32,000 nucleotides of DNA from Candidatus Babeliales bacterium. GTDB taxonomy: Bacteria > Babelota > Babeliae > Babelales > UASB340. This document shows, in pieces, positions 457 through 19,914 of the stretch; position 1 is the stretch's first letter, and each line of letters opens with the position of its first letter. The position numbers and the translations under genes were made by a program. Under the pieces are notes generated by a model, which was given only the letters and a program-made list of their open reading frames with translations, was not told the DNA's origin and ran no database searches. The stretch lies in assembly GCA_023133515.1 (NCBI GenBank), contig JAGLWI010000005.1:8434-40433 (forward strand), written 5' to 3'.

Positions 457-2031
457 ATGAAAAAACTCTTAAAAGGCATACTCATCTTAGCGCTTGTTGC
501 AACCGGAGTTCGTGCCGCAACCAATAAAACATTCTTTTTGCCAAGACCACACGGTGTAAACTTGGCAATGGAATACACAACATGGAATGAACTACTTCAA
601 ACAAAAGACGAAGATCGCTTCGGAGCCCACTTTCAAGTAACCCCTTTCTACATGGATTCAACAGACGGTGATGATCTTGGAAAATATTTTGGAATTCTAA
701 ATAAACATAACTTCTTGCTAAATACAGTAAATGCAACAGATCTTCGAGGAACATACATAATACATGATGGTGGTACTGCAGCGTGTTTGGCTGGTGTTAC
801 CGGCGTAGCTCCTGTCGCAGCAAATGCAGTTCAGCTAGCAACAATGAAGTTCGATCCTGAACAAACAGCTTATGGTGTCAGAATTGATTACTATCAAGAT
901 TTAAGAAAAATACTCAAAGGACTTTATTTCAAAATAGCTCTTCCTATTATACATGTAGAAAATGATCTACAACTTAATATTACAGGAGCAAATGCAGGAG
1001 CAAATGCAAATATAGCCGCAGTCGCAACAGCCGCTGTAGTAAAATCCCAATTTGAACATTACTTCAAAGGAACTCTTGATGTTCCAACCGACCAACCTGC
1101 CCCTATATCCGCAGTAGCTCACATGGGTTCTCAACAAACATTAAAATATGCGAAAATAGATGGTCAACAAAGCTCCTTCAGTATTGCAGATATTGATTTT
1201 GTCCTTGGTTACAAAGTATTAGACAAAGAAAAATATAATCTTGCATTAAATATTGGTTTAACAATTCCTACAGGTGATTCAGCTGATGGGGTGTGGCTTT
1301 GGGAACCAGTTGTAGGTAATGGCGATCACTGGGCCCTTGGTGGTGGTTTAGATTTCGGAGCAAAACTTTGGGAAGATGAAGATCAAAACATAAAAATGAC
1401 TGCTGCATTAAATTATAGATATCTTTTTGAAAGCACAGAAAAAAGAACTATTGGAATTGATGGTAAAGACTGGGGACAATATTATCTCTTAGGACAAGTT
1501 GGTACAAACCGTGCTGTCCAAACATTAATCCCTGCAGCAAATGTATTAACAAGAGATCTTGATGTTGAACCAGGAAGTCAACTTGATGCAATTCTTGCCT
1601 TTGCATATAACAACGGTGGATTTACAATTGATCTTGGTTACAATCTATTCTGGAAAGATGCTGAGGACGTAAAATTAAAAGGCACATGGACCAATAATCA
1701 ATACGGAATTGCACACATAAACCAAACAATGAATAACGCTCAGAACTTTGAATACTCAGCAACTGCTGCTGCTGTTGGTGATGCTGGTGGTGCAGAAGCT
1801 TATTTGAATGATCAAACAAATTTAACTGCAGCCATCCCTACATGGGGAATTGACGTATCAAAAGCTGCAACACCTTCACAAATTACACACAAAATATATG
1901 GTGGCGTTGGATATATCTTTAAGGAATGGGAATATCCATTGATGCTAGGTCTTGCAGGACATTACGAATTTGCCAGTGATGATGGAATTGACAACTGGGG
2001 TGTCTGGGGCAAAGTCGGTATTGCATTTTAA
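457..2031 (+). CDS. Putative outer-membrane beta-barrel protein (porin/MOMP-like), paralog 1
   Basis: ATG at 457 lies 8 nt after GGAGAA (444-449); the track start at 439 is TTG. The N-terminus MKKLLKGILILALVATGVRAA looks like a signal peptide. The protein ends ...GKVGIAF, with the terminal Phe typical of beta-barrel OMPs. It is about 45-50% identical by eye to ORF 3790..5262. Ala/Gly-rich variable segments are absent from the paralog. Confidence 0.6.
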   Translation: MKKLLKGILILALVATGVRAATNKTFFLPRPHGVNLAMEYTTWNELLQTKDEDRFGAHFQVTPFYMDSTDGDDLGKYFGILNKHNFLLNTVNATDLRGTYIIHDGGTAACLAGVTGVAPVAANAVQLATMKFDPEQTAYGVRIDYYQDLRKILKGLYFKIALPIIHVENDLQLNITGANAGANANIAAVATAAVVKSQFEHYFKGTLDVPTDQPAPISAVAHMGSQQTLKYAKIDGQQSSFSIADIDFVLGYKVLDKEKYNLALNIGLTIPTGDSADGVWLWEPVVGNGDHWALGGGLDFGAKLWEDEDQNIKMTAALNYRYLFESTEKRTIGIDGKDWGQYYLLGQVGTNRAVQTLIPAANVLTRDLDVEPGSQLDAILAFAYNNGGFTIDLGYNLFWKDAEDVKLKGTWTNNQYGIAHINQTMNNAQNFEYSATAAAVGDAGGAEAYLNDQTNLTAAIPTWGIDVSKAATPSQITHKIYGGVGYIFKEWEYPLMLGLAGHYEFASDDGIDNWGVWGKVGIAF

Positions 2032-2034
2032 TTA

Positions 2035-2080
2035 ATCCTTCGACTACGAGCCTTCGGCTCTTCGCTCAGGACGAGCGGTA
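2035..2080. repeat. Partial/variant copy of the dispersed GC-rich palindromic element
   Basis: TCCTTCGAC...CTCAGGACGAGCG matches the right arm ATCCTTCGACAAGCTCAGGATGAGCGC. It is interrupted by the hairpin GAGCCTTCGGCTC (2048-2060, cUUCGg-type loop). It starts 4 nt after the OMP1 stop codon. Confidence 0.6.
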
Positions 2081-2104
2081 GAAAAAGATTAATTAAAAAA
2101 ATTA

Positions 2105-2131
2105 GGGTCGGAAAATTTCCGGCCCTTTTTT
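2105..2131 (+). terminator. Rho-independent terminator candidate downstream of OMP paralog 1
   Basis: Stem GGGTCGG / CCGGCCC (one G-U pair), loop AAAATTT, followed by TTTTTT. Confidence 0.55.
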
Positions 2132-2143
2132 ATTGCCCAAAAT

Positions 2144-2209
2144 CCCAAAGCTTACGCTTTGGGCTAACTCAGTGTCGCATTGCCAAAAGGCAAAGCTCTT
2201 TTGAATTTT
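2144..2209. repeat. Structured repeat, left copy (B-L)
   Basis: Hairpin CCCAAAGC-TTAC-GCTTTGGG (2144-2163) and hairpin TTGCC-AAAA-GGCAA (2180-2193). Its reverse complement matches 3667-3715 nearly base for base. Confidence 0.7.
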
Positions 2210-2236
2210 ACATTAATTTTGTTAGGTATTGTTTAA

Positions 2237-2692
2237 ATGTCGAATCACACGTATTCAAGTATGTTTTATCATATTATTTGGTCAACCAAAAATCGTAAGC
2301 CGTATATTAAATGTGAATTTAAATCAAAATTATATGATTTTATTGGAAAAATAATTGTAACAAAAGAATGGATTCCGCTTGCAATCAATGGGACCTCAGA
2401 TCATATACATGTTCTTTTTCAATTATTTCCCAATTATAAAGTTTCTGATGTAGTTTGTTGTATAAAGGCAAATTCTTCTCGTTTTATGAGAGATAATTTT
2501 ATTTCAGAGTTTTTGTGGCAAGGAGGTTATTCAGTTTTTACTGTTGATAAAAAACTATTACCAAAAATAAAAAATTATATTGCAAAACAGGAACAACATC
2601 ATGCCGTATTAACATTTGAAGATGAGCTTATGCTTTTGCTAAAACGAAATAGGATTTCTTATGGTGATTATTTTAAAAGAAAATTGTTATAA
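2237..2692 (+). CDS. IS200/IS605-family Y1 (HUH) transposase, RAYT-like
   Basis: 151 aa. Motifs: YHIIWSTKNRKPYI, HUH motif DHIHVLF, WQGGYSVFTV, and the catalytic-Tyr helix NYIAKQEQHH. This is the layout of IS200 TnpA (YHIVF..DHIHML..GYY..YI..Q). No clear RBS. Confidence 0.8.
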   Translation: MSNHTYSSMFYHIIWSTKNRKPYIKCEFKSKLYDFIGKIIVTKEWIPLAINGTSDHIHVLFQLFPNYKVSDVVCCIKANSSRFMRDNFISEFLWQGGYSVFTVDKKLLPKIKNYIAKQEQHHAVLTFEDELMLLLKRNRISYGDYFKRKLL

Positions 2693-2699
2693 CACATCT

Positions 2700-2806
2700 T
2701 TGAGCACCCGTTAGGGTGCAATACTGAGTTAGCCCAAAGGACCCTCCTGAGCTACGTCGAAGGACGTAAGCTTTGGGCTATGTCAAAGGACGTAAGTTTT
2801 GGGCTT
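2700..2806. repeat. Structured repeat, middle copy (B-M)
   Basis: Hairpin GCACCC-GTTA-GGGTGC (2704-2719). Stem AGCCCAAAG (2731-2739) / CTTTGGGCT (2771-2779) encloses CCTCCTGAGCTACGTCGAAGG. The 20-nt segment AAGGACGTAAGCTTTGGGCT (2760-2779) is repeated at 2786-2805 with 1 mismatch. Confidence 0.7.
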
Positions 2807-2821
2807 GAAAAAATAAAATTA

Positions 2822-2866
2822 TCCTTGTAAAATCGAACTTGAACCTCGAAATTACAAGGAGTTTTT
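2822..2866 (+). terminator. Hairpin / terminator candidate after the transposase unit
   Basis: 9-bp stem TCCTTGTAA (2822-2830) / TTACAAGGA (2852-2860) plus an inner TCGA/TCGA pairing, followed by GTTTTT. Confidence 0.45.
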
Positions 2867-2943
2867 ATAAAGAAAAACAGTCTATAGGCTCTAAATCATT
2901 ATAACCTAAGATTTTATAAAAACGTGAAACTAAAAGCTAAACA

Positions 2944-2994
2944 TTGACAAACTCATTTTTAATTGTTACCTAATAAGTATACAAAAAAGTATAC
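2944..2994 (+). promoter_or_regulatory. Candidate promoter and operator of the toxin-antitoxin operon
   Basis: TTGACA at 2944-2949 with only weak -10 candidates (TACCTA at N17, TAATAA further downstream). AAGTATAC occurs twice (2975-2982 and 2987-2994), 12 bp apart, each containing the palindrome GTATAC. The second copy ends 23 nt upstream of the antitoxin ATG. Confidence 0.35.
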
Positions 2995-3016
2995 CTGTTA
3001 AGTCTATGGAGAAAAT

Positions 3017-3265
3017 ATGTCAAAAATGGTAAGAATCAGCGAAGAAACAAGCACAAATTTAACTGCACTACAAAAATCTACAGGAAAATCCAAAGTTACA
3101 TTAGTTGAAATAGCTATCGACAAGTTATATAAAGATTTTTTTTTACTCAAAGCAAACAGAGCATATGAAAAATTAAAAAAAAATAAAAAAAAATGGAATG
3201 AAGAATTAAAAGAACGAGAAAGCTGGGAAAATACATCAAATGATGGATTAATTAATAATGAATAA
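3017..3265 (+). CDS. Ribbon-helix-helix (CopG/MazE-type) antitoxin
   Basis: 82 aa. GGAG lies 5-6 nt upstream of the ATG. The N-terminus VRISEETSTNLTALQKSTGKSKVTLVEIAIDKLY fits a strand-helix-helix pattern. The C-terminal tail is acidic and Trp-containing. The gene overlaps the toxin gene by 8 nt. Confidence 0.65.
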   Translation: MSKMVRISEETSTNLTALQKSTGKSKVTLVEIAIDKLYKDFFLLKANRAYEKLKKNKKKWNEELKERESWENTSNDGLINNE

Positions 3266-3611
3266 GCTTAAGCCTTCTCGCGGAGAAATCTGGTTTGCAA
3301 ATTTAAATCCAATAGTTGGCCACGAACAATCTAAATCAAGACCTTGCCTAATAATATCAGTTAACCAATTTAATTATGGGCCAGCAGAACTTGTTGTTAT
3401 TCTTCCTATGACAACAAAAAATAAAAATCTTCCTTGGTACGTAGAAATTAATCCTCCAGAAGGAGGAATTAAATTAAAATCATTTATAATCTGTGATCAA
3501 GTAAGAACAATTTCTAAAAAAAGATTAATTGATAAATCTCTAGGCATAATTCACCAAAAAACTTTATACCAAATTGAAAAACGATTAGAAATATTACTAG
3601 GATTAAATTAA
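3258..3611 (+). CDS. mazF: MazF/PemK(Kid)-family endoribonuclease toxin
   Basis: 117 aa. RGEIWFANLNPIVGHEQSKSRPCLIIS closely parallels Kid/PemK RGEIWLVSLDPTAGHEQQGTRPVLIV. ICDQVRTISKKRL parallels RCDQPRTID. Confidence 0.85.
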   Translation: MNKLKPSRGEIWFANLNPIVGHEQSKSRPCLIISVNQFNYGPAELVVILPMTTKNKNLPWYVEINPPEGGIKLKSFIICDQVRTISKKRLIDKSLGIIHQKTLYQIEKRLEILLGLN

Positions 3612-3632
3612 TTTAGCTCAAATATGTGTGAT

Positions 3633-3660
3633 TTGACATATAAATAATACTTAATAAAAT
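3633..3660 (+). promoter_or_regulatory. Candidate sigma70-type promoter for OMP paralog 2
   Basis: TTGACA (3633-3638), 16-nt spacer, TAAAAT (3655-3660). The predicted start falls at the first bases of repeat 3667-3773. Confidence 0.4.
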
Positions 3661-3666
3661 TAATAT

Positions 3667-3773
3667 AAAATTCAAAAGAGCTTTGCCTTTTTGCAATGCA
3701 ACACTTAGTTAGCCCAATGGACCCTCCTGAGCCCTGAGCTTGTCGAAGGGTCGAAGGACGTTAGCTTTGGGCC
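3667..3773. repeat. Structured repeat, right copy (B-R), inverted relative to 2144-2209
   Basis: AAAATTCAAAAGAGCTTTGCCTTTTTGCAATGCAACACTTAGTTAGCCC matches the reverse complement of 2161-2209 with a few mismatches. The GCCCAA..TTGGGC stem carries a ~45-nt loop insert with duplicated CCTGAGC and TCGAAGG cores. The repeat ends 4 nt before the OMP2 RBS. Confidence 0.75.
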
Positions 3774-3789
3774 ATTTGGAGCAAAATTT

Positions 3790-5262
3790 ATGAAAAAATT
3801 TTTTAAAGTTATTTTTATTTTAATTATCAGTATAAATACAGCCTTTGCAACACACACAACAGAAAAAACATTCTTTTTGCCAAGATCTCATGGTGTAAAT
3901 TTACCAATGGAATATACAGCATGGAATGAATTTTTATCTCAAAACACAGAGGAACAATTTGGTACCAATTTTCAAGTAGTTCCATTTTATCAAGAATCCT
4001 TAAACGGAACTGATCTTGGAAAATATTTTGGTGTTAAAAACAAAATATCTTTCAATCTTCATTCTGGACAAGAAGAAGATGTACGTGGCACATACATAAT
4101 TCACGATGCAACAACAGCCGCAGGAAATGTAAATCTTGCAACAATAGAAATATATCCTCATCAAAAAGCAACTGGAATTCGTTTTGATTACTTTCAAAAT
4201 TTAGAAAGAGTAATGGAAAATCTTTATCTAAAAGTAGCAATACCTATAATTTTTTTAAAAAATACTATGAACTTGAAAATCAAAGAAGGAACCGCAAAAG
4301 ATACTTTTCTTGATTATTTCAAAGGCAAAATAGACATCGACTTTGATAGCGCTGGAATAATAAGTGGTCAAGCTCACAACAGCGCTCAAGAATCACTTAC
4401 ACATGCAAAAATTCCACATGATTACGATTACACTGCTGTAGATGTTGCTGATATTGATATCATATTTGGATATAATGTTTTAAATAACAATCGATATAAG
4501 GCATCAATAAATTTAGGATTCTCTTTCCCAACAGGTGAAGAACCAAGTGGTTTTTATGTTTTCGAATCAATAGTTGGTGGTGGAAACCATTGGTCATTAA
4601 ATGCAGGAATTAATTCCAATGCAACCATGTGGAAACATAAATCCAAAAACCTAAAGTTAAACTTTGCCTTAAATTACAAATATCTTTTTCAAAGCACAGA
4701 AAAAAGAACTCTCAAATTAAAAGGGCTACCATACAGTCAATATTATTTAATAGGAAAAATAGGAAGCATTCGAAATCAAACAAAATTCATACCTGCCGCA
4801 AATATCCTTACAAGAAATATTAATGTTACACCAGGAAGCCAAATTGATACCATTTTGGGCTTTTCTTATAATCATTCAGGCCTTATTATTGATGTTGGAT
4901 ACAATTTTTTCTGGAAAAATAAAGAATCCGTATCTTCAAAAGACCACTGGTTTGACGGAAAATATGGAATTTTACATCCAGAACAAATATTGGAAGGAAA
5001 CAAGTCTTTTGAACTAAGCGATAATCCTGTTGCGGCAGGTGTAGATGGTGGAGCAGAAAAATTGATTTATGAGCAAGATTTGGATATTCAAGCAGCCTCA
5101 ACTCCGTCTTTAGTAACTCATAAAATCTATGGTAGTTTAGGGTACCTATGTTTAAAGTTAAAACGTCCTATAATGCTTGGATTTGGATGTAGTTATGAAT
5201 TTGCCGAAAAATATGCCTTAGAAAACTGGCAAATTTGGACAAAAATGGGGATAACTTTTTAA
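3790..5262 (+). CDS. Putative outer-membrane beta-barrel protein, paralog 2
   Basis: GGAG lies 8 nt upstream of the ATG. Signal peptide MKKFFKVIFILIISINTAFA. C-terminus ...WTKMGITF. Blocks shared with paralog 1: KTFFLPR.HGVN..MEYT.WNE, RGTYIIHD, STEKRT, IPAAN.LTR, THKIYG. Confidence 0.6.
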   Translation: MKKFFKVIFILIISINTAFATHTTEKTFFLPRSHGVNLPMEYTAWNEFLSQNTEEQFGTNFQVVPFYQESLNGTDLGKYFGVKNKISFNLHSGQEEDVRGTYIIHDATTAAGNVNLATIEIYPHQKATGIRFDYFQNLERVMENLYLKVAIPIIFLKNTMNLKIKEGTAKDTFLDYFKGKIDIDFDSAGIISGQAHNSAQESLTHAKIPHDYDYTAVDVADIDIIFGYNVLNNNRYKASINLGFSFPTGEEPSGFYVFESIVGGGNHWSLNAGINSNATMWKHKSKNLKLNFALNYKYLFQSTEKRTLKLKGLPYSQYYLIGKIGSIRNQTKFIPAANILTRNINVTPGSQIDTILGFSYNHSGLIIDVGYNFFWKNKESVSSKDHWFDGKYGILHPEQILEGNKSFELSDNPVAAGVDGGAEKLIYEQDLDIQAASTPSLVTHKIYGSLGYLCLKLKRPIMLGFGCSYEFAEKYALENWQIWTKMGITF

Positions 5263-5293
5263 AAAACGTTGTTTTTTATCATTTTTTATATTT

Positions 5294-5391
5294 AGAACTT
5301 ATACGAAAATTCAAATAAATTTGCAATGCGCTCATCCTGAGCTTGTCGAAGGATGAAGCGCTGTATCCTTCGACAAGCTCAGGATGAGCGC
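5294..5391. repeat. Palindromic element copy A1 (REPIN/MITE-like)
   Basis: Perfect 27-nt inverted repeat: GCGCTCATCCTGAGCTTGTCGAAGGAT (5328-5354) and ATCCTTCGACAAGCTCAGGATGAGCGC (5365-5391), separated by a 10-nt spacer. The AT-rich left extension AGAACTTATACGAAAATTCAAATAAATTTGCAAT is shared with copies at 7274 and 19802. Confidence 0.85.
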
Positions 5392-5437
5392 GTTGCTTAA
5401 TTTTTTTATGTTTTTTATCTCAAAATATATATACTAT

Positions 5438-5465
5438 TTGACAATTTTCTGCCTAAAATCATACT
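5438..5465 (+). promoter_or_regulatory. Candidate promoter for ORF 5544..7265
   Basis: TTGACA (5438-5443), 16-nt spacer, CATACT (5460-5465). Confidence 0.3.
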
Positions 5466-5543
5466 AGTAATAAGTTAATTAAAATTAGTTATAAAATAAT
5501 TTAAAAAATTAAAAATTAGGGATAAAAAACGGAGGTTATCAAA

Positions 5544-7265
5544 ATGATAAAAAACATTAGAAATGTATTTTTCAAAACATTTACTTGGATATTTTTAGCA
5601 ATATCCGCTTTTTCTTTTACTAATACATATTCCCAGGTTCAAGTTCACAGATTGCAATCTCTTTCACAACAAAGTGCAGACTGTGGTTTTTATGCTACTT
5701 GGGGAGCAAGCTGTATGGCTCAAAACAACTCTTTAAACGAAGCAAGAAAAATATTATTAGATAGAAACTTATTTAATCAAAAATTAATAAATTGGAAGAA
5801 AAACATAAAAAAATATAATGGTACAAAAACCAATATAAATGGTAATGAAATGCATAAATTCGTTCTTCCAACTCTAAACAACAAAGAACACATAACTATT
5901 ATCGATAGTCCAAAACATTTCAACGCTATAAAATCAAACGTTGCTGTTCCTTGTGAACTTATAAAAGGAATCGAAGAATTTCGAAAAAATGGAATTCCTC
6001 ATGCCATTATATACAATCAAGGTGGACACTGGGTTGGCTATGGAATTAGAAAAGAAAACAGACAAACTATAATTTTTAAAACAAATTCTTGCGGAACATC
6101 GGAAAATAAATATGTAGCCAAAAATGGAACAATTGAAGATATGTTATACAAATGGTTTACAGGCCAAGAAAAACTTATTCCAGGTGAAATAATTCAAGAA
6201 ATCGATAGAATTGCAAATACGATTAACTTTAATCAAGATATATTATCTGCCAAAAATTACATTTATAACTTATTTAATAAAGTAATACTTCTTGGATTGC
6301 AAAACACAAAAAGTTACTGCAATATTCTTATTAATAATTTTGATATCATAAAGAATTTTGGACCAGATGCTATAAAAGAAAGTTTCGAAATTTACATTTT
6401 AAATATTTCTAAAAATATAGAAAGATTTAAAAATTATGCTAGTCTTCAACTATATTCTAATTATAAAAATGTTAATATTACAAATGAAAACGCACCATAC
6501 ATACTTAAAAAAATAGCTGATCAATTTAATAAACAATTCTCACTTCAAATTTTAACTTCTACTAATAATGAAAAGAATATAAATCCTTTCTGTAATGAAT
6601 ATGCATATCAAATTCTAAATAATATAATTCAGCAAAATATAAAACCAAAAAGAATAAATCCAATAATAATAAAAGAAAATAAAATCGAAAAAGAAAAATT
6701 ATTTGTTCAACCGGTTACTCCTAAAACTCAAGTTAAAAAAACTACTCCAAAAAAACAAGTTAAAAAAACCATTCAACCCACTACTCCAAAACAAGCAATA
6801 GATCCTTCTGTAATAAAACAAGTTAAACAAACAATAAAAGAAAAGATTAATGAATTTAATTCTTCCAAAGATCCTAAAAAAGCTGAACAACTTATGTTTG
6901 AAATTACTGATCTAATTATAGAATTTAGGTTATGGAAACAATATGCAAAAATGATTAGAGATATGCCAAATAAACTTGAAAAATCAAAAACAAAGGAAAA
7001 AGAAAATAAAACAAAAAAATTAAAATACAATGATGAATCTAATACTCAAATTAAACAGGCAATAAAACGCAGAATTCTTTCTCTTAAAGAACTAATGTCA
7101 AATATTTGGAAACTAAGCCAAAAAGAAAAACAAAGCCTAAATGAATATGGTATAAAAATTGAATTAAATGAAATAATCGAACTAATAGAAAGTGCTCAAT
7201 TAACAAAGCTAGAAAAAGAAAACTTTCAAAAAGACATCAATTTAATAATAACAGCTTTAGAATAG
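5544..7265 (+). CDS. Secreted hypothetical protein with N-terminal papain-fold (Josephin/UCH-like) cysteine-peptidase signature and Lys-rich C-terminal region
   Basis: GGAGG lies 8 nt upstream of the ATG. Signal peptide ...FLAISAFSFTNTYSQ. Q42-x4-C47-G (QQSADCGFYA), then H162-W (IIYNQGGHWVGYGIRK) and FKTNS. This resembles Josephin (Q-x4-C; ICNYKEHWFTVRKL..FNLNS). TPK repeats and a K/E-rich helical tail follow. Confidence 0.7.
   Translation: MIKNIRNVFFKTFTWIFLAISAFSFTNTYSQVQVHRLQSLSQQSADCGFYATWGASCMAQNNSLNEARKILLDRNLFNQKLINWKKNIKKYNGTKTNINGNEMHKFVLPTLNNKEHITIIDSPKHFNAIKSNVAVPCELIKGIEEFRKNGIPHAIIYNQGGHWVGYGIRKENRQTIIFKTNSCGTSENKYVAKNGTIEDMLYKWFTGQEKLIPGEIIQEIDRIANTINFNQDILSAKNYIYNLFNKVILLGLQNTKSYCNILINNFDIIKNFGPDAIKESFEIYILNISKNIERFKNYASLQLYSNYKNVNITNENAPYILKKIADQFNKQFSLQILTSTNNEKNINPFCNEYAYQILNNIIQQNIKPKRINPIIIKENKIEKEKLFVQPVTPKTQVKKTTPKKQVKKTIQPTTPKQAIDPSVIKQVKQTIKEKINEFNSSKDPKKAEQLMFEITDLIIEFRLWKQYAKMIRDMPNKLEKSKTKEKENKTKKLKYNDESNTQIKQAIKRRILSLKELMSNIWKLSQKEKQSLNEYGIKIELNEIIELIESAQLTKLEKENFQKDINLIITALE
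6714..6767 (+). repeat. 27-nt imperfect tandem repeat inside the CDS (VTPKTQVKK / TTPKKQVKK), with a third degenerate unit to about 6797
   Basis: GTTACTCCTAAAACTCAAGTTAAAAAA (6714-6740) and ACTACTCCAAAAAAACAAGTTAAAAAA (6741-6767). Confidence 0.7.
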
Positions 7266-7273
7266 ATAATTTA

Positions 7274-7387
7274 AAAACTTATACGAAAATTAAAACAAAT
7301 TTGCAATGGCGCTCATTCTAGTGCTGAGTATTATCGAAGTATCGAAGAATGAAGCGCTGTATCCTTCGACAAGCTCAGGATGAGCGC
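7274..7387. repeat. Palindromic element copy A2
   Basis: The right arm ATCCTTCGACAAGCTCAGGATGAGCGC is intact (7361-7387). The left arm is expanded: GCGCTCATTCTAGTGCTGAGTATTATCGAAGTATCGAAGAATGAAGCGC. The core differs at 1 position from copy 19802-19914. It starts 9 nt after the stop codon of ORF 5544..7265. Confidence 0.85.
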
Positions 7388-7456
7388 ATTATTTTAAACA
7401 TCAAATTTAAATACAGAATAAGTTCTAAAGAATAATTAACTAATCTTTATTTTTCC

Positions 7457-11724: not shown

Positions 11725-13224
11725 TTATTTAAATAAATCTAAATTTTCCTGTAACATCTTTATTAAAAAACTTATCCTTTCCAAGGATTTTTCTTTACCT
11801 AAAATAGTCATCAATTCAAAAACTCCTGGGCTCATAATTTTCCCAGTAAGCGCCAATCTTAAAGGTTGAGCCAATGCAACCAATTTCATATCAACTTCTT
11901 TACAAACATCTTTTGCAATCTTATTTAATTCACTCGTGGTGAGTGCGCCGTAGGCGTGTCGATCATCCTGAGCCTGTCGAAGGATCGAACCATCAAATTT
12001 TTTAAGAGAAGAAATATTATTTTCATAAGATTGCATCAAACCTATACTTTTCTTTGATAACCATTTTTTTATCAAATTTAAATCCAAAACCTTTGGCGAC
12101 TTTGCAAAAGAAATTATATCTTGAACCATATTTAAAATTCTTATCGCTCTTGCTCCATATTGAGTAAAAAGTTCTTCTAACTGTTCTTTTTCCCAAAACT
12201 TTATCAACTCTTCTTTATAATTATTCTCAATATTTTCTACGGCCTTTATAAATCCTTCAAAGTCTAATTTTCTAATATAAACCCCATTCAGCCATTCAAG
12301 TTTTTTAATGTCAAAGATTGCACCCTTTTTACCAACATTATCCAAAGAAAAATGTTTTATCATTTCATCTTTTGTAAAAATCTCTTGATCACCATGAGAC
12401 CAACCAAGACGTACTAAATAATTAAAAAGAGCATCAGGCAAAAATCCTTGTACTCTATATTCATCAACACTCACTGCCGCATCACGCTTACTCAATCTAT
12501 GTCCAGATGGACCAAGAATTAAAGGCAGATGAGCAAAAACTGGTAATTTTTCATTCAATGCTTTATAAATAAAAATCTGTTTCGGTGTATTAGAAATATG
12601 ATCCTCTCCACGTATAACATGAGAGATTTTCATAAAAATATCATCTAATACAACAACAAAATTGTATGTCGGAATACCATCTTGTCTTAAAATTATAAAA
12701 TCATTTATCTGATCTATATCAACACTAATTTTTCCACGTATTACATCTTCAAACTCAATTCTTTTTTGATCTCTCGGAACACGAAATCTTATAGCATAAG
12801 GTTTTTGCAAATCCTGCTCAGAATATTTTTTATCTTTACAATTACACTGCTCTTGCTCAACATAAAATTCTTCAACTTTTTTTGGCTCAGCAGCAACTGC
12901 AGATGGCTGGCAAAAACACGGATAAGCTAATCCTTTTTCTAAAAAATCTTTTGCAATTTTTTTGTGCTCTTCAATGCGAGATAATTGATACAATACTGAT
13001 TCATCTGATAATAATCCCAACCACTTTAATGATTTAAGCTGAAATTCAACATATTCCTTTTTAGATCTTACCTGATCAGTGTCCTCAATACGTACCAAAT
13101 ATTTTCCATTATTATGTCTTGCAAACAACCAATTAAAAATAGCTACACGCACACTTCCAACATGCAAATGACCTGTTGGAGATGGAGCAAAACGAACTCT
13201 TACTTCATTTTTAAAATCTGCCAT
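11725..13224 (-). CDS. gltX: Glutamyl-tRNA synthetase
   Basis: 499 aa. RFAPSPTGHLHVGSVR (HIGH motif), RLSKRD (KMSKS-type), and the C-terminal LAQPLRLALTG. The stop lies 14 nt upstream of the fabD start. Confidence 0.9.
   Translation of the reverse strand: MADFKNEVRVRFAPSPTGHLHVGSVRVAIFNWLFARHNNGKYLVRIEDTDQVRSKKEYVEFQLKSLKWLGLLSDESVLYQLSRIEEHKKIAKDFLEKGLAYPCFCQPSAVAAEPKKVEEFYVEQEQCNCKDKKYSEQDLQKPYAIRFRVPRDQKRIEFEDVIRGKISVDIDQINDFIILRQDGIPTYNFVVVLDDIFMKISHVIRGEDHISNTPKQIFIYKALNEKLPVFAHLPLILGPSGHRLSKRDAAVSVDEYRVQGFLPDALFNYLVRLGWSHGDQEIFTKDEMIKHFSLDNVGKKGAIFDIKKLEWLNGVYIRKLDFEGFIKAVENIENNYKEELIKFWEKEQLEELFTQYGARAIRILNMVQDIISFAKSPKVLDLNLIKKWLSKKSIGLMQSYENNISSLKKFDGSILRQAQDDRHAYGALTTSELNKIAKDVCKEVDMKLVALAQPLRLALTGKIMSPGVFELMTILGKEKSLERISFLIKMLQENLDLFK
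11931..11992. repeat. Palindromic-element arm embedded in frame within gltX
   Basis: On the minus strand, GATCCTTCGACAGGCTCAGGATGATCGAC matches the arm ATCCTTCGACAAGCTCAGGATGAGCGC at about 24/27 positions. It encodes SILRQAQDDRHAYGALT. It forms a GC-rich island inside an AT-rich gene. Confidence 0.75.
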
Positions 13225-17417: not shown

Positions 17418-17517
17418 CACGCTCATCCTAAACTTGTCGAAGAATACAGCGCTGCATCCTTCGACAAGCTCAGGATGAGCGCATCTTTTTACATTTTAGC
17501 GCATCTTTTTACATTTT
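17418..17517. repeat. Palindromic element copy A3 plus a 20-nt tandem duplication at its right edge
   Basis: CACGCTCATCCTAAACTTGTCGAAGAAT...ATCCTTCGACAAGCTCAGGATGAGCGC (to 17482). AGCGCATCTTTTTACATTTT at 17478-17497 is repeated exactly at 17498-17517. Confidence 0.8.
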
Positions 17518-19801: not shown

Positions 19802-19914
19802 AGAACTTATACGAAAATTCAAATAAATTTGCAATGCGCTCATTCTAGTGCTGAGTATTATCGAAGTATCGAAGAATGAAACGCTGTATCCTTCGACAAG
19901 CTCAGGATGAGCGC
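19802..19914. repeat. Palindromic element copy A4
   Basis: Same left extension and expanded-arm variant as 7274-7387, with 1 mismatch in the ~79-nt core. It ends in ATCCTTCGACAAGCTCAGGATGAGCGC. Confidence 0.85.

Follow-up and report, generated by a model that had tools for sequence, protein, structure and literature searches.

A hairpin-flanked Y1 transposase gene, a MazF toxin-antitoxin pair and a transposase stub in the spacer between two outer-membrane protein genes of a Babeliales genome

In a 32,000-nucleotide stretch of a Babeliales genome (hereafter the window), the spacer between the tandem outer-membrane protein genes OMP1 and OMP2 contains a Y1 transposase gene with hairpin flanks, a MazF toxin-antitoxin (TA) pair and a truncated second transposase gene (the stub). 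The analysis indicated that this segment is a patchwork of ordinary selfish elements and not a new mobile cassette that carries cargo. We consider it probable, at roughly 0.7, that the locus combines a resident transposase resembling the REP-associated tyrosine transposases (RAYTs) with a mazEF pair that was inserted independently, and that the spacer underwent one inversion or inverted duplication in the past. An earlier sequence-only reading had described a 1.6-kb segment lying exactly between the two OMP paralogs. This placement was accurate: the right copy of the bounding element ends at 3775 and is followed by GGAG (3778-3781) and the OMP2 ATG at 3790, and the left end lies 3' of the OMP1 terminator, whose stem (2104-2126) is followed by a T-run. 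The list of parts also held, namely a Y1 transposase whose flanks are RAYT-like, a MazF TA pair, two OMP paralogs, and long inverted copies (Table 1).

Table 1 Features of the OMP1-OMP2 region, in window coordinates.
Feature	Position	Strand	Remarks
OMP1, outer-membrane beta-barrel	457..2031	+	first of tandem paralog pair
Type-B GC-rich palindromic element, 42 nt	2038..2079	.	present/absent between strains
OMP1 intrinsic terminator	2104..2134	+	10-bp stem, then T-run; conserved in L011 and L109
REP-L	2144..2179	+	8-bp hairpin (2144-2163) and conserved core TTGGGCTAACTCAGTGTCGCA; 5' flank of Y1 gene
Left arm of inverted repeat	2159..2255	+	REP core, leader, first 19 nt of Y1 ORF
Y1 (HUH) transposase, intact	2237..2692	+	Pfam Y1_Tnp E 1.8e-25
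REP-M	2717..2807	-	3' flanking copy, inverted vs REP-L; fold z -4.6
Terminator-like hairpin between REP-M and TA	2822..2860	+	-12.3 kcal/mol, z -4.9, then TTTTTAT
TA promoter and putative operator	2944..2994	+	TTGACA 2944-2949; GTATAC-N6-GTATAC 2977-2994; read from sequence
Antitoxin, 82 aa	3017..3265	+	8-nt overlap with mazF; conserved 5' of MazF homologs
MazF/PemK toxin	3258..3611	+	Pfam PemK_toxin E 1.4e-27; 464 homologs
Stub of second Y1 gene	3613..3639	-	ATG and 7 codons, then stop (MSNHTYLS-stop); a reading of the letters
Right arm of inverted repeat	3621..3717	-	collinear with Y1 5' end of relative L011
Near-consensus sigma-70-like site	3633..3660	+	TTGACA-16-TAAAAT, 11/12; points at OMP2
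REP-R	3697..3775	-	decayed copy, 39-nt type-B insertion in loop; abuts OMP2 RBS
OMP2, second paralog	3790..5262	+	N-terminus 66% identical to L011 ortholog

The two OMP proteins are 43% identical, end in …GIAF and …GITF, and show the signal peptide, the barrel fold and the C-terminal Phe of FapF/COG4313-like outer-membrane beta-barrels. The AF2 model of OMP1 (pLDDT 85.9, pTM 0.85) matched FapF (E 3e-13), COG4313 (E 1.5e-8), and also FadL barrels in a Foldseek search. An OMP1 ortholog with 67% identity was present in L109, the contig of which ends 144 nt past the stop and is therefore uninformative on the spacer. Elsewhere in the Dependentiae, nothing separates the neighbouring OMP genes; the inter-OMP spacer holds an unrelated MNT+HEPN pair in one further member of the phylum (L021) and an AAA/PD-(D/E)XK ORF in L024. 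In these reduced genomes, small selfish modules have thus accumulated repeatedly between the genes of tandem OMP arrays. An Rfam search of 1900-5600 gave nothing above the gathering scores.

Comparison with relatives carried the argument. The nearest of them, L011, has 68% amino acid identity in Y1, 79% in the C-terminus of OMP1, and the value given in Table 1 in the N-terminus of OMP2. Its OMP1-OMP2 spacer contains REP–transposase–REP only, with no TA pair, and the orthologous or related OMP-OMP spacers of L012 and L013 have the same arrangement. The Y1 gene of L011 is oriented as the stub of the window and opposite to the intact Y1 gene of the window: window positions 1863-2185 and 3785-4367 and the right-arm region 3553-3719 are collinear with L011, whereas 2154-2683 is inverted. 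In L013 (Y1 54%), the gene likewise lies antiparallel between two OMP paralogs, again without a TA pair. L011 and L013 are short metagenome contigs whose exact phylogenetic placement is not fixed. Because the Y1 gene of the window is inverted with respect to both relatives and the right arm is collinear with the start of theirs, the gene must have been inverted, or duplicated in inverted orientation, at least once. The same synteny contradicts the earlier proposal that the TA pair is the cargo of a REP-bounded mobile RAYT unit.

The long inverted repeat proved to be real, and the 49 nt first recognised (2161-2209 versus 3667-3715) are half of its true length. A repeat search gave two arms of 97 nt (2159-2255 versus 3621-3717) with 90% complementarity. 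By ungapped comparison, the arms are identical at 87 of 97 positions, the longest uninterrupted match being 26 nt, and the comparison scored 67 versus a maximum of 12 in 200 shuffles. Homology to L011 extends to Y1 codon 8, both arms of the window encode MSNHTY before their homology ends, and the stub aligns with the Y1 gene start of both the window and L011, its junction falling within 4 nt of the mazF stop. Since the arms reach into the first Y1 codons, the right arm is a gene fragment and not a terminus; it is the remnant of a second transposase copy in the opposite orientation. The supposed 97-nt boundaries are thus two copies of a transposase 5' end rather than transposon ends. The right arm also contains the promoter-like site directed at OMP2. 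This site is a consensus match only, in a region not enriched for such sites, and it is not conserved in L011, so that selection for an OMP2 promoter as the reason for retention of the stub is only a guess.

REP-L folds into a clean 8-bp stem at 2144-2163 (CCCAAAGC-TTAC-GCTTTGGG, fold z -3.6), and its core also flanks the Y1 gene in L011. Together with REP-M it forms a 23-nt inverted repeat (2157-2179 versus 2717-2739, 91% complementary). REP-M itself had been reported as a third repeat copy at 2700-2806, and was confirmed at 2717-2807 in the orientation of the right copy; the loop of its hairpin holds a 25-nt type-B-like insertion, and a 26-nt tandem half copy lies at 2782-2807. REP-M and REP-R agree at 92% both over 2717-2752 versus 3697-3732 and over 2756-2781 versus 3750-3775. 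A common stem had been assigned to both ends of the segment. Both copies have it, the right one around a loop of about 45 nt, but the right stem (GCCCAATG…CTTTGGGC) contains one mismatch, and its fold (z -0.74) is no better than those of shuffles. The derived loop insertion is common to REP-M and REP-R and absent from REP-L, and the leader is common to REP-L and REP-R, a distribution that fits recombination among REP cores. The REP-L-type repeat was seen at this locus only, within the about 40 kb (32 kb + 8 kb) scanned.

The TA pair has the composition of a type II system, with a PemK/MazF toxin, a small overlapping upstream gene, and an operator motif. The overlapping antitoxin/MazF pair had been recognised correctly; for the RHH label attached to the antitoxin, the only counterpart was a weak RelB-like match (E 0.052). 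The single-sequence AF2 monomer model of the antitoxin is all-helical, with two helices, and the protein matched no family in Pfam (E up to 0.1), NCBIfam, or PDB (4-sequence profile). It is 50-63% identical to the ORFs upstream of MazF homologs in L014, L016, and L017. TTGACA is also found 5' of the homologous antitoxin in L014/L015, and paired GTATAC occurs in two of three homolog loci (L014/L015 and L017/L018), with a single GTATAC in L016. The pair thus appears to be an autonomous mazEF-type module, equipped with a promoter and a GTATAC operator of its own, and it may act only as a selfish addiction module. MazF homologs with 61-66% identity are each accompanied by the conserved antitoxin with no Y1 gene nearby, at unrelated sites (one flanked by NTP-transferase and ABC genes, one by fabG and fabD, and one beside an S4/RluA gene), which argues against the cargo reading.

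Linkage of a RAYT with a TA pair elsewhere, which the sequence-only reading had suggested looking for, was not borne out either. A MazF-like ORF was found near none of the six closer Y1 homologs and within 4 kb of 2 of 80 distant ones, the latter taken from a metagenome scan in which the Y1 alignment reached at most 43% identity. A literature search found no published report of RAYT-TA linkage.

The intact Y1 gene encodes a 151-aa protein whose DHIHVL and NYIAKQ segments match, in an alignment with ISHp608 TnpA, the HUH and Tyr/Gln of the latter; it thus combines the Y1/HUH fold with the HUH motif and the catalytic Tyr. The protein passed the NCBIfam IS200 model NF033573 (78.2 bits, cutoff 55) and failed the curated RAYT model NF047646 (18.8 bits, cutoff 80). 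Inverted flanking hairpins are present in the window and also in L007, L008, L011, L013, and L022, and all six closer Y1 homologs have tight inverted hairpin flanks with a GGGCTA(A/C)C…CGC core. The gene thus resembles RAYTs in organisation and IS200 in sequence. Compared with L011, it is under purifying selection (dN 0.22, dS 0.86, dN/dS about 0.25; dN of the flanking OMP2, 0.28). Its presence in the OMP spacers of L011 and L013 and a dN comparable with that of its flanks point to vertical inheritance at a conserved locus, and an exact-sequence look-up for the gene returned this locus only. In L008, REP–Y1–REP occupies a different spacer of the same syntenic block, so that the unit is not strictly immobile; L007 and L022 also have it in other spacers.

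Type-B palindromes are scattered in spacers and form doublets, and one copy lies in frame inside gltX. The 42-nt type-B element next to OMP1 is missing in L003, L004, and L005, which are otherwise 99.2-99.75% identical. This strain-variable element beside the only Y1 gene in about 40 kb offers a natural test system for palindrome mobilisation. The motif TGCAATGCG, tried as a link between REP cores and type-B doublets, was rejected because it was not over-represented (6 found versus 4.3 expected). A type-B-related core, CCTGAGCTTGTCGAAGG, occurs eight times in the window versus 0.01 expected, and the type-B core is nested in and beside the Y1 flanks. Adjacency and nesting suggest a link between the type-B elements and the Y1 gene, the protein of which may have the local hairpins, the dispersed 42-nt palindromes or both as its targets.

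In the history that we prefer, the spacer would be the long-term home of a single RAYT-like gene between REP-L and REP-M. In this lineage, the gene would have been inverted or inversely duplicated via its flanking inverted repeats, and the mazEF module would now occupy the place of the body of the ancestral-orientation Y1 copy, of which the 5' repeat, the leader and eight codons would be left as the right arm. Either an inverted duplication was followed by TA insertion/deletion, or a REP-carrying TA fragment recombined at a REP; the history was judged from two relatives only, from which order and mechanism are not reconstructable. The locus suggests that a gene lying between inverted REPs can be turned around or duplicated by them.

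A different account of the repeats is that the TA pair and the stub arrived together, on a piece of DNA of a related strain that comprised REP, leader, stub and mazEF and entered through one crossover with the 3' REP already present. Such a crossover would yield the direct REP-M/REP-R repeats now flanking the TA module. These repeats are indeed 92% identical over ungapped blocks of 36 nt and 26 nt, have the derived loop insertion in common and enclose precisely the segment made up of hairpin, TA pair and stub, and the close joining of stub and mazF (within 4 nt) is also as expected. However, the 86 Y1 loci and 5 TA homolog loci included no donor layout in which the TA pair sits within or next to a Y1 gene, and the right arm lines up with the ancestral start of the gene by OMP2, so that decay in place is simpler. 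Joint arrival is accordingly unlikely, although it is the alternative to which we give most weight.

The five assemblies in which the locus was found, from several samples (NCBI MAG, two Logan runs, one ENA assembly, and one further Logan run), were all collinear; a low-frequency inversion isoform could escape a comparison read from assemblies. This result bears on the possibility that the interior is a recombination-invertible switch, in which crossover in the 97-nt arms would turn the Y1 gene around together with the TA pair, and orientation could alter antisense transcription into mazF or read-through into OMP2. The arms, alike at 87 of 97 positions and with their 26-nt exact run, would suit such a crossover, the Y1 gene, being opposite to that of both relatives, has flipped at least once, and the same first six codons in both arms mean that the Y1 ORF would be restored in either orientation. 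An inverton, however, occurs in both orientations with a site-specific recombinase nearby. Here, 5 of 5 assemblies showed a single orientation, and the locus has no adjacent gene for an invertase or recombinase. Furthermore, the 10% divergence of the arms speaks against frequent gene conversion or exchange, and no regulatory element would shift relative to OMP2 on inversion because the arms stay in place. We regard the switch as improbable. Of the earlier suggestion that the segment may invert or excise, what stands is that the segment was inverted or inversely duplicated at least once in the past; every contig found has one orientation and one context. Still more doubtful is a self-stabilising, orientation-switching RAYT locus, in which the 1.4-kb interior flips via the arms and the TA pair penalises loss of the segment; if true, either arm would supply the Y1 leader and first codons, and the other arm would read antisense into mazF. 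Similarly doubtful is the broader idea that REP–Y1–REP units of Babeliales are mobile to this day and now and then take up modules from their surroundings.

The HUH Y1 transposases of IS200/IS605 elements recognise hairpins that are subterminal and on a single strand, and a composite or cargo transposon is recognised by a unit at more than one site or by an exact empty site in relatives, neither of which was found. That the whole 1.6-kb segment is one mobile unit, in which Y1 carries the TA pair between inverted termini and moves or excises as a block, is hardly credible: both genes are bracketed by long inverted copies, the catalytic motifs of Y1 are intact, and REP–Y1–REP in different spacers across Babeliales indicates movement in the past, but the right 'end' includes the transposase ORF start, the right hairpin is decayed, HUH Y1 enzymes do not use 97-nt terminal inverted repeats, no second copy of the cassette appeared in any sequence look-up, and the synteny and the TA and Y1 homolog loci described above contradict it.

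As a cassette the segment is of little weight, since the 'RAYT with cargo' dissolves into a resident gene, a stub and an independent mazEF, each of which can be set beside a known system. The TA pair resembles chromosomal mazEF/pemIK modules in its PemK/MazF toxin, its overlapping upstream ORF, its TTGACA promoter with palindromic operator, and its scattered, lineage-specific chromosomal sites; it differs in that its antitoxin matches no described family and that the module abuts a truncated transposase gene. The type-B elements are comparable to Rickettsia palindromic elements and REP/MITE-like sequences in being dispersed, in forming doublets, in strain presence/absence and in the copy inside a gene, whereas their sequence family is unrelated to the Rickettsia palindromic elements. 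With the IS200 group, the Y1 unit shares a TnpA-like protein, a length of about 660 bp with hairpins near both ends, and occurrence in different spacers in different lineages. The end hairpins of IS200/IS605 elements have the same orientation on one strand, and these elements occur as multiple near-identical copies; in contrast, the end hairpins and conserved cores of the window are mutually inverted, all look-ups showed one context and no multiple copies, and the gene has a conserved position and diverges together with its neighbours.

REPtron loci were reportedly described by Nunvar in 2010 and Ton-Hoang in 2012. In such RAYT/TnpA-REP loci, a REP-associated tyrosine transposase is flanked by inverted REPs (PMC5581495), and genome-wide over-representation of the flanking repeat by a 16-mer measure serves as a criterion (Bertels 2017, PMC5581495). 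The locus resembles them in having one Y1/HUH gene, apparently in one copy, with tight inverted hairpin flanks; in purifying selection, divergence like that of the flanking genes, and the same spacer in related lineages; and in the abundant short GC-rich palindromes adjoining or nested in the flanks. It differs in the flanking hairpin type, which was seen at the locus only within about 40 kb, in the host phylum Dependentiae, in the second-copy stub and TA pair inside the repeat cluster, and in a protein that the IS200 model accepts (78 bits) but that falls far short of the curated RAYT cutoff (18.8 versus 80). The locus is a clear Dependentiae example of a REP-flanked, vertically inherited Y1 transposase, and the IS200-looking protein of a RAYT-like locus advises caution against calling RAYTs by sequence only.

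The locus between the two outer-membrane protein genes, OMP1 and OMP2, lies in a window with a G+C content of 29%, and the host is a member of Candidatus Babeliales (Dependentiae).

Features of the OMP1-OMP2 spacer and its bordering genes
Feature	Position (nt)
OMP1	457-2031
GC-rich palindromic element, 42 nt	2038-2079
OMP1 terminator	2104-2134
REP-L hairpin and core	2144-2179
Leader	ends at 2236
Y1 transposase	2237-2692
REP-M	2717-2807
Terminator-like hairpin	2822-2860
Toxin-antitoxin (TA) promoter and operator	2944-2994
Antitoxin	3017-3265
MazF	3258-3611
Inverted stub, leader, and REP-R	3613-3775
OMP2	3790-5262

Long inverted copies had been proposed in the sequence-only reading, and they proved longer than first noted: the arms at 2159-2255 and 3621-3717 are 97 nt with an identity of 87/97, match without interruption for at most 26 nt, and reach an alignment score of 67 against a shuffle maximum of 12. 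Because the left arm includes the Y1 start codon, the right arm on the minus strand represents the start of a second Y1 gene, whose opening codons there read ATG TCA AAT CAC ACA TAT TTG AGC TAA. This stub is homologous to the Y1 gene of L011, an ENA metagenome contig with the closest Y1 homolog (68% amino acid identity), up to codon 8, where a stop immediately follows, and 4 nt separate its end from the stop codon of mazF. REP-L forms a clean hairpin of 8 bp, and REP-M is a hairpin of the same type, split precisely at the TTACG/CTTTGGG junction by a 25-nt insertion. In REP-R this insertion is present in a 39-nt version, the stem has a mismatch, and the fold was no better than that of shuffled sequence. 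REP-M and REP-R are direct repeats, both inverted relative to REP-L. The right arm also contains a near-consensus sigma-70-like site directed towards OMP2 (TTGACA-16-TAAAAT, 3633-3660, plus strand), the -35 box of which is the reverse complement of ATGTCAA in the stub. This site, which is not conserved in L011, could be a reason for retention of the stub.

L011 is the orthologous locus: its two ends code for parts of an OMP1 ortholog (C-terminus, 79% identical) and of an OMP2 ortholog (N-terminus, 66%), respectively. Window 1863-2185 (OMP1 end, terminator, and REP) and 3785-4367 (OMP2) were collinear with L011, as was the right arm region (3553-3719) with its Y1 gene start, whereas Y1 and its leader (2154-2683) were inverted. 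In L013, a second relative (Y1 54%), two OMP paralogs enclose an antiparallel Y1, accompanied by additional REP copies. Thus, both relatives hold Y1 between OMP genes, and the TA pair is absent from both. Their arrangement indicates the ancestral order OMP1–REP–Y1 (opposite strand)–leader–REP–OMP2; the right arm of the window would be a remnant of the ancestral-orientation Y1, and the intact Y1 its inverted version.

Behind the Y1 gene of L013, its 5' repeat recurs, first in direct orientation and then in inverted orientation (54 nt, 96%); repeat copies and blocks lie at 2153-2206, 2702-2750, 2903-2956, and 3074-3092 of this contig, which also has duplicated terminator-like blocks. REP clusters near these Y1 genes are probably prone to local duplication. 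In another comparison contig (L008, 2809-3516), a REP–Y1–REP unit was observed between Mur-ligase and p184 orthologs in the same syntenic block, whereas the corresponding spacer of the window genome (L001, 2093-2327) holds no such unit. This difference in placement shows that the unit relocates slowly, over long times, and in every case without TA.

The assignment of MazF was solid by sequence family match. The antitoxin was conserved alongside MazF homologs, but its proposed RHH fold was not confirmed. A homologous 81-82-aa (or 66-aa) ORF precedes every one of the closest MazF homologs, which share 61-66% identity and occupy three places: the interval from an NTP-transferase gene to ABC-transporter genes, the fabG-fabD interval, and a site next to an S4/pseudouridine-synthase gene. 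None of these places has a Y1 gene nearby. Upstream of the homologous pairs, we found TTGACA and three GTATAC-type hexamers (L014/L015), GTATAC-N6-GTATAC (L017/L018), or one GTATAC (L016). The recurrence of these promoter/operator motifs indicates that the TA module is self-contained, spanning approximately 2940-3611. A MazF-like ORF was present within 4 kb in only 2 of 80 distant Y1 loci (metagenomes, 350 kb), and the literature searched contained no report linking a RAYT to a TA pair.

Taken together, we favor, with a probability of about 0.7, a resident RAYT-like locus that was inverted or inversely duplicated through its own flanking inverted repeats and that acquired, in addition, an autonomous mazEF module; this module would now occupy the former body of the ancestral-orientation Y1 copy. 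Several routes could have led to the present layout; the derived insertion common to REP-M and REP-R and the leader common to REP-L and REP-R fit recombination among REP cores. Integration by a single crossover of a fragment carrying a REP, the stub, and TA is an unlikely alternative origin of these neighboring parts. An active invertible switch is slightly less probable still; it is without support and contradicted by the synteny. All five independent assemblies were collinear with the window throughout the cassette, and exact look-ups of the Y1, MazF, and OMP2 proteins gave no context other than this locus; hence, the suspected inversion or excision was not observed at the level of assembled sequence, nor was a second-site isoform. 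A true cargo-carrying mobile unit is very improbable; it is likewise unsupported and contradicted by the synteny. Accordingly, the sequence-only reading listed the parts correctly and a past inversion did happen, but its RAYT with TA cargo is not supported; the components are known kinds of element.

The two OMP paralogs share 43% identity. For OMP1, AF2 gave a confident model that matched the outer-membrane barrels FapF, COG4313, and FadL, suggesting a fold like the FapF/COG4313 channels for the family, for which no Pfam model was found except PF13557 matches in two members. Across Dependentiae (L019-L028; window 457-5262), bacA is followed by 2-4 paralogous beta-barrel genes (~500 aa) in a conserved array, and these genes are mostly directly adjacent in the more distant members. 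An MNT nucleotidyltransferase and HEPN pair lies between OMP paralogs in TM6 bacterium GW2011_GWF2_28_16 (L021, 10814-11627), and an AAA-ATPase/PD-(D/E)XK ORF in L024 (3470-5017). Inter-OMP spacers in Dependentiae seem to be recurrent landing sites for small selfish modules.

Type B, a GC-rich palindrome with the core CCTGAGCTTGTCGAAGG, lies nested within REP-M and REP-R and adjoins REP-L, and its copies are partly arranged as REPIN-like doublets. Doublets occur in intergenic spacers at 5322-5397, about 7300-7395, 17420-17480, and 19830-19910, each consisting of two inverted GCGCTCATCCTGAGCTTGTCGAAGGAT copies in a long hairpin; they are candidate targets for mobilization by the single Y1 gene. 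The 42-nt element (CCTTCGAC…GCTCAGGACGAGCGG) right after the OMP1 stop is shared with assembly L002 and cleanly missing from three others of 99.2-99.75% identity (L003, at 604-612; L004; L005), with no obvious target duplication in this comparison. This presence and absence is evidence that the GC-rich element family was mobile recently. Another copy, differing from the core by one mismatch, is placed in frame at about 11940-11990 within gltX (glutamyl-tRNA synthetase; 11725-13224, minus strand), coinciding with extra residues …SILRQAQDDRHAYGAL… that are gapped against a solved GluRS. It is reminiscent of the Rickettsia palindromic elements, which likewise lie within genes.

The Y1 assignment was also solid. 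Both the HUH motif and the catalytic Tyr are retained in alignment to ISHp608 TnpA, and the protein passes the NCBI IS200 model (78 bits). It fails the curated RAYT model (18.8 bits; cutoff, 80 bits), yet despite these scores its organization is RAYT-like. The Y1 gene is tightly bracketed by inverted hairpin repeats in the window and at six of six closer homolog loci (P0002-P0005, 54-68% identity, and L022), with the common core GGGCTA(A/C)C…CGC. Bertels et al. 2017 (PMC5581495) list three hallmarks of RAYTs: they are single-copy, they are inherited vertically, and the palindromes on their flanks are over-represented. Against L011, Y1 showed a dN/dS of ~0.25 and a dN of 0.22, similar to that of the neighboring OMP2 (0.28). 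The gene-adjacent hairpin type was seen only at the locus within ~40 kb; the type-B core occurs 8 times in the 32-kb window against 0.01 expected.
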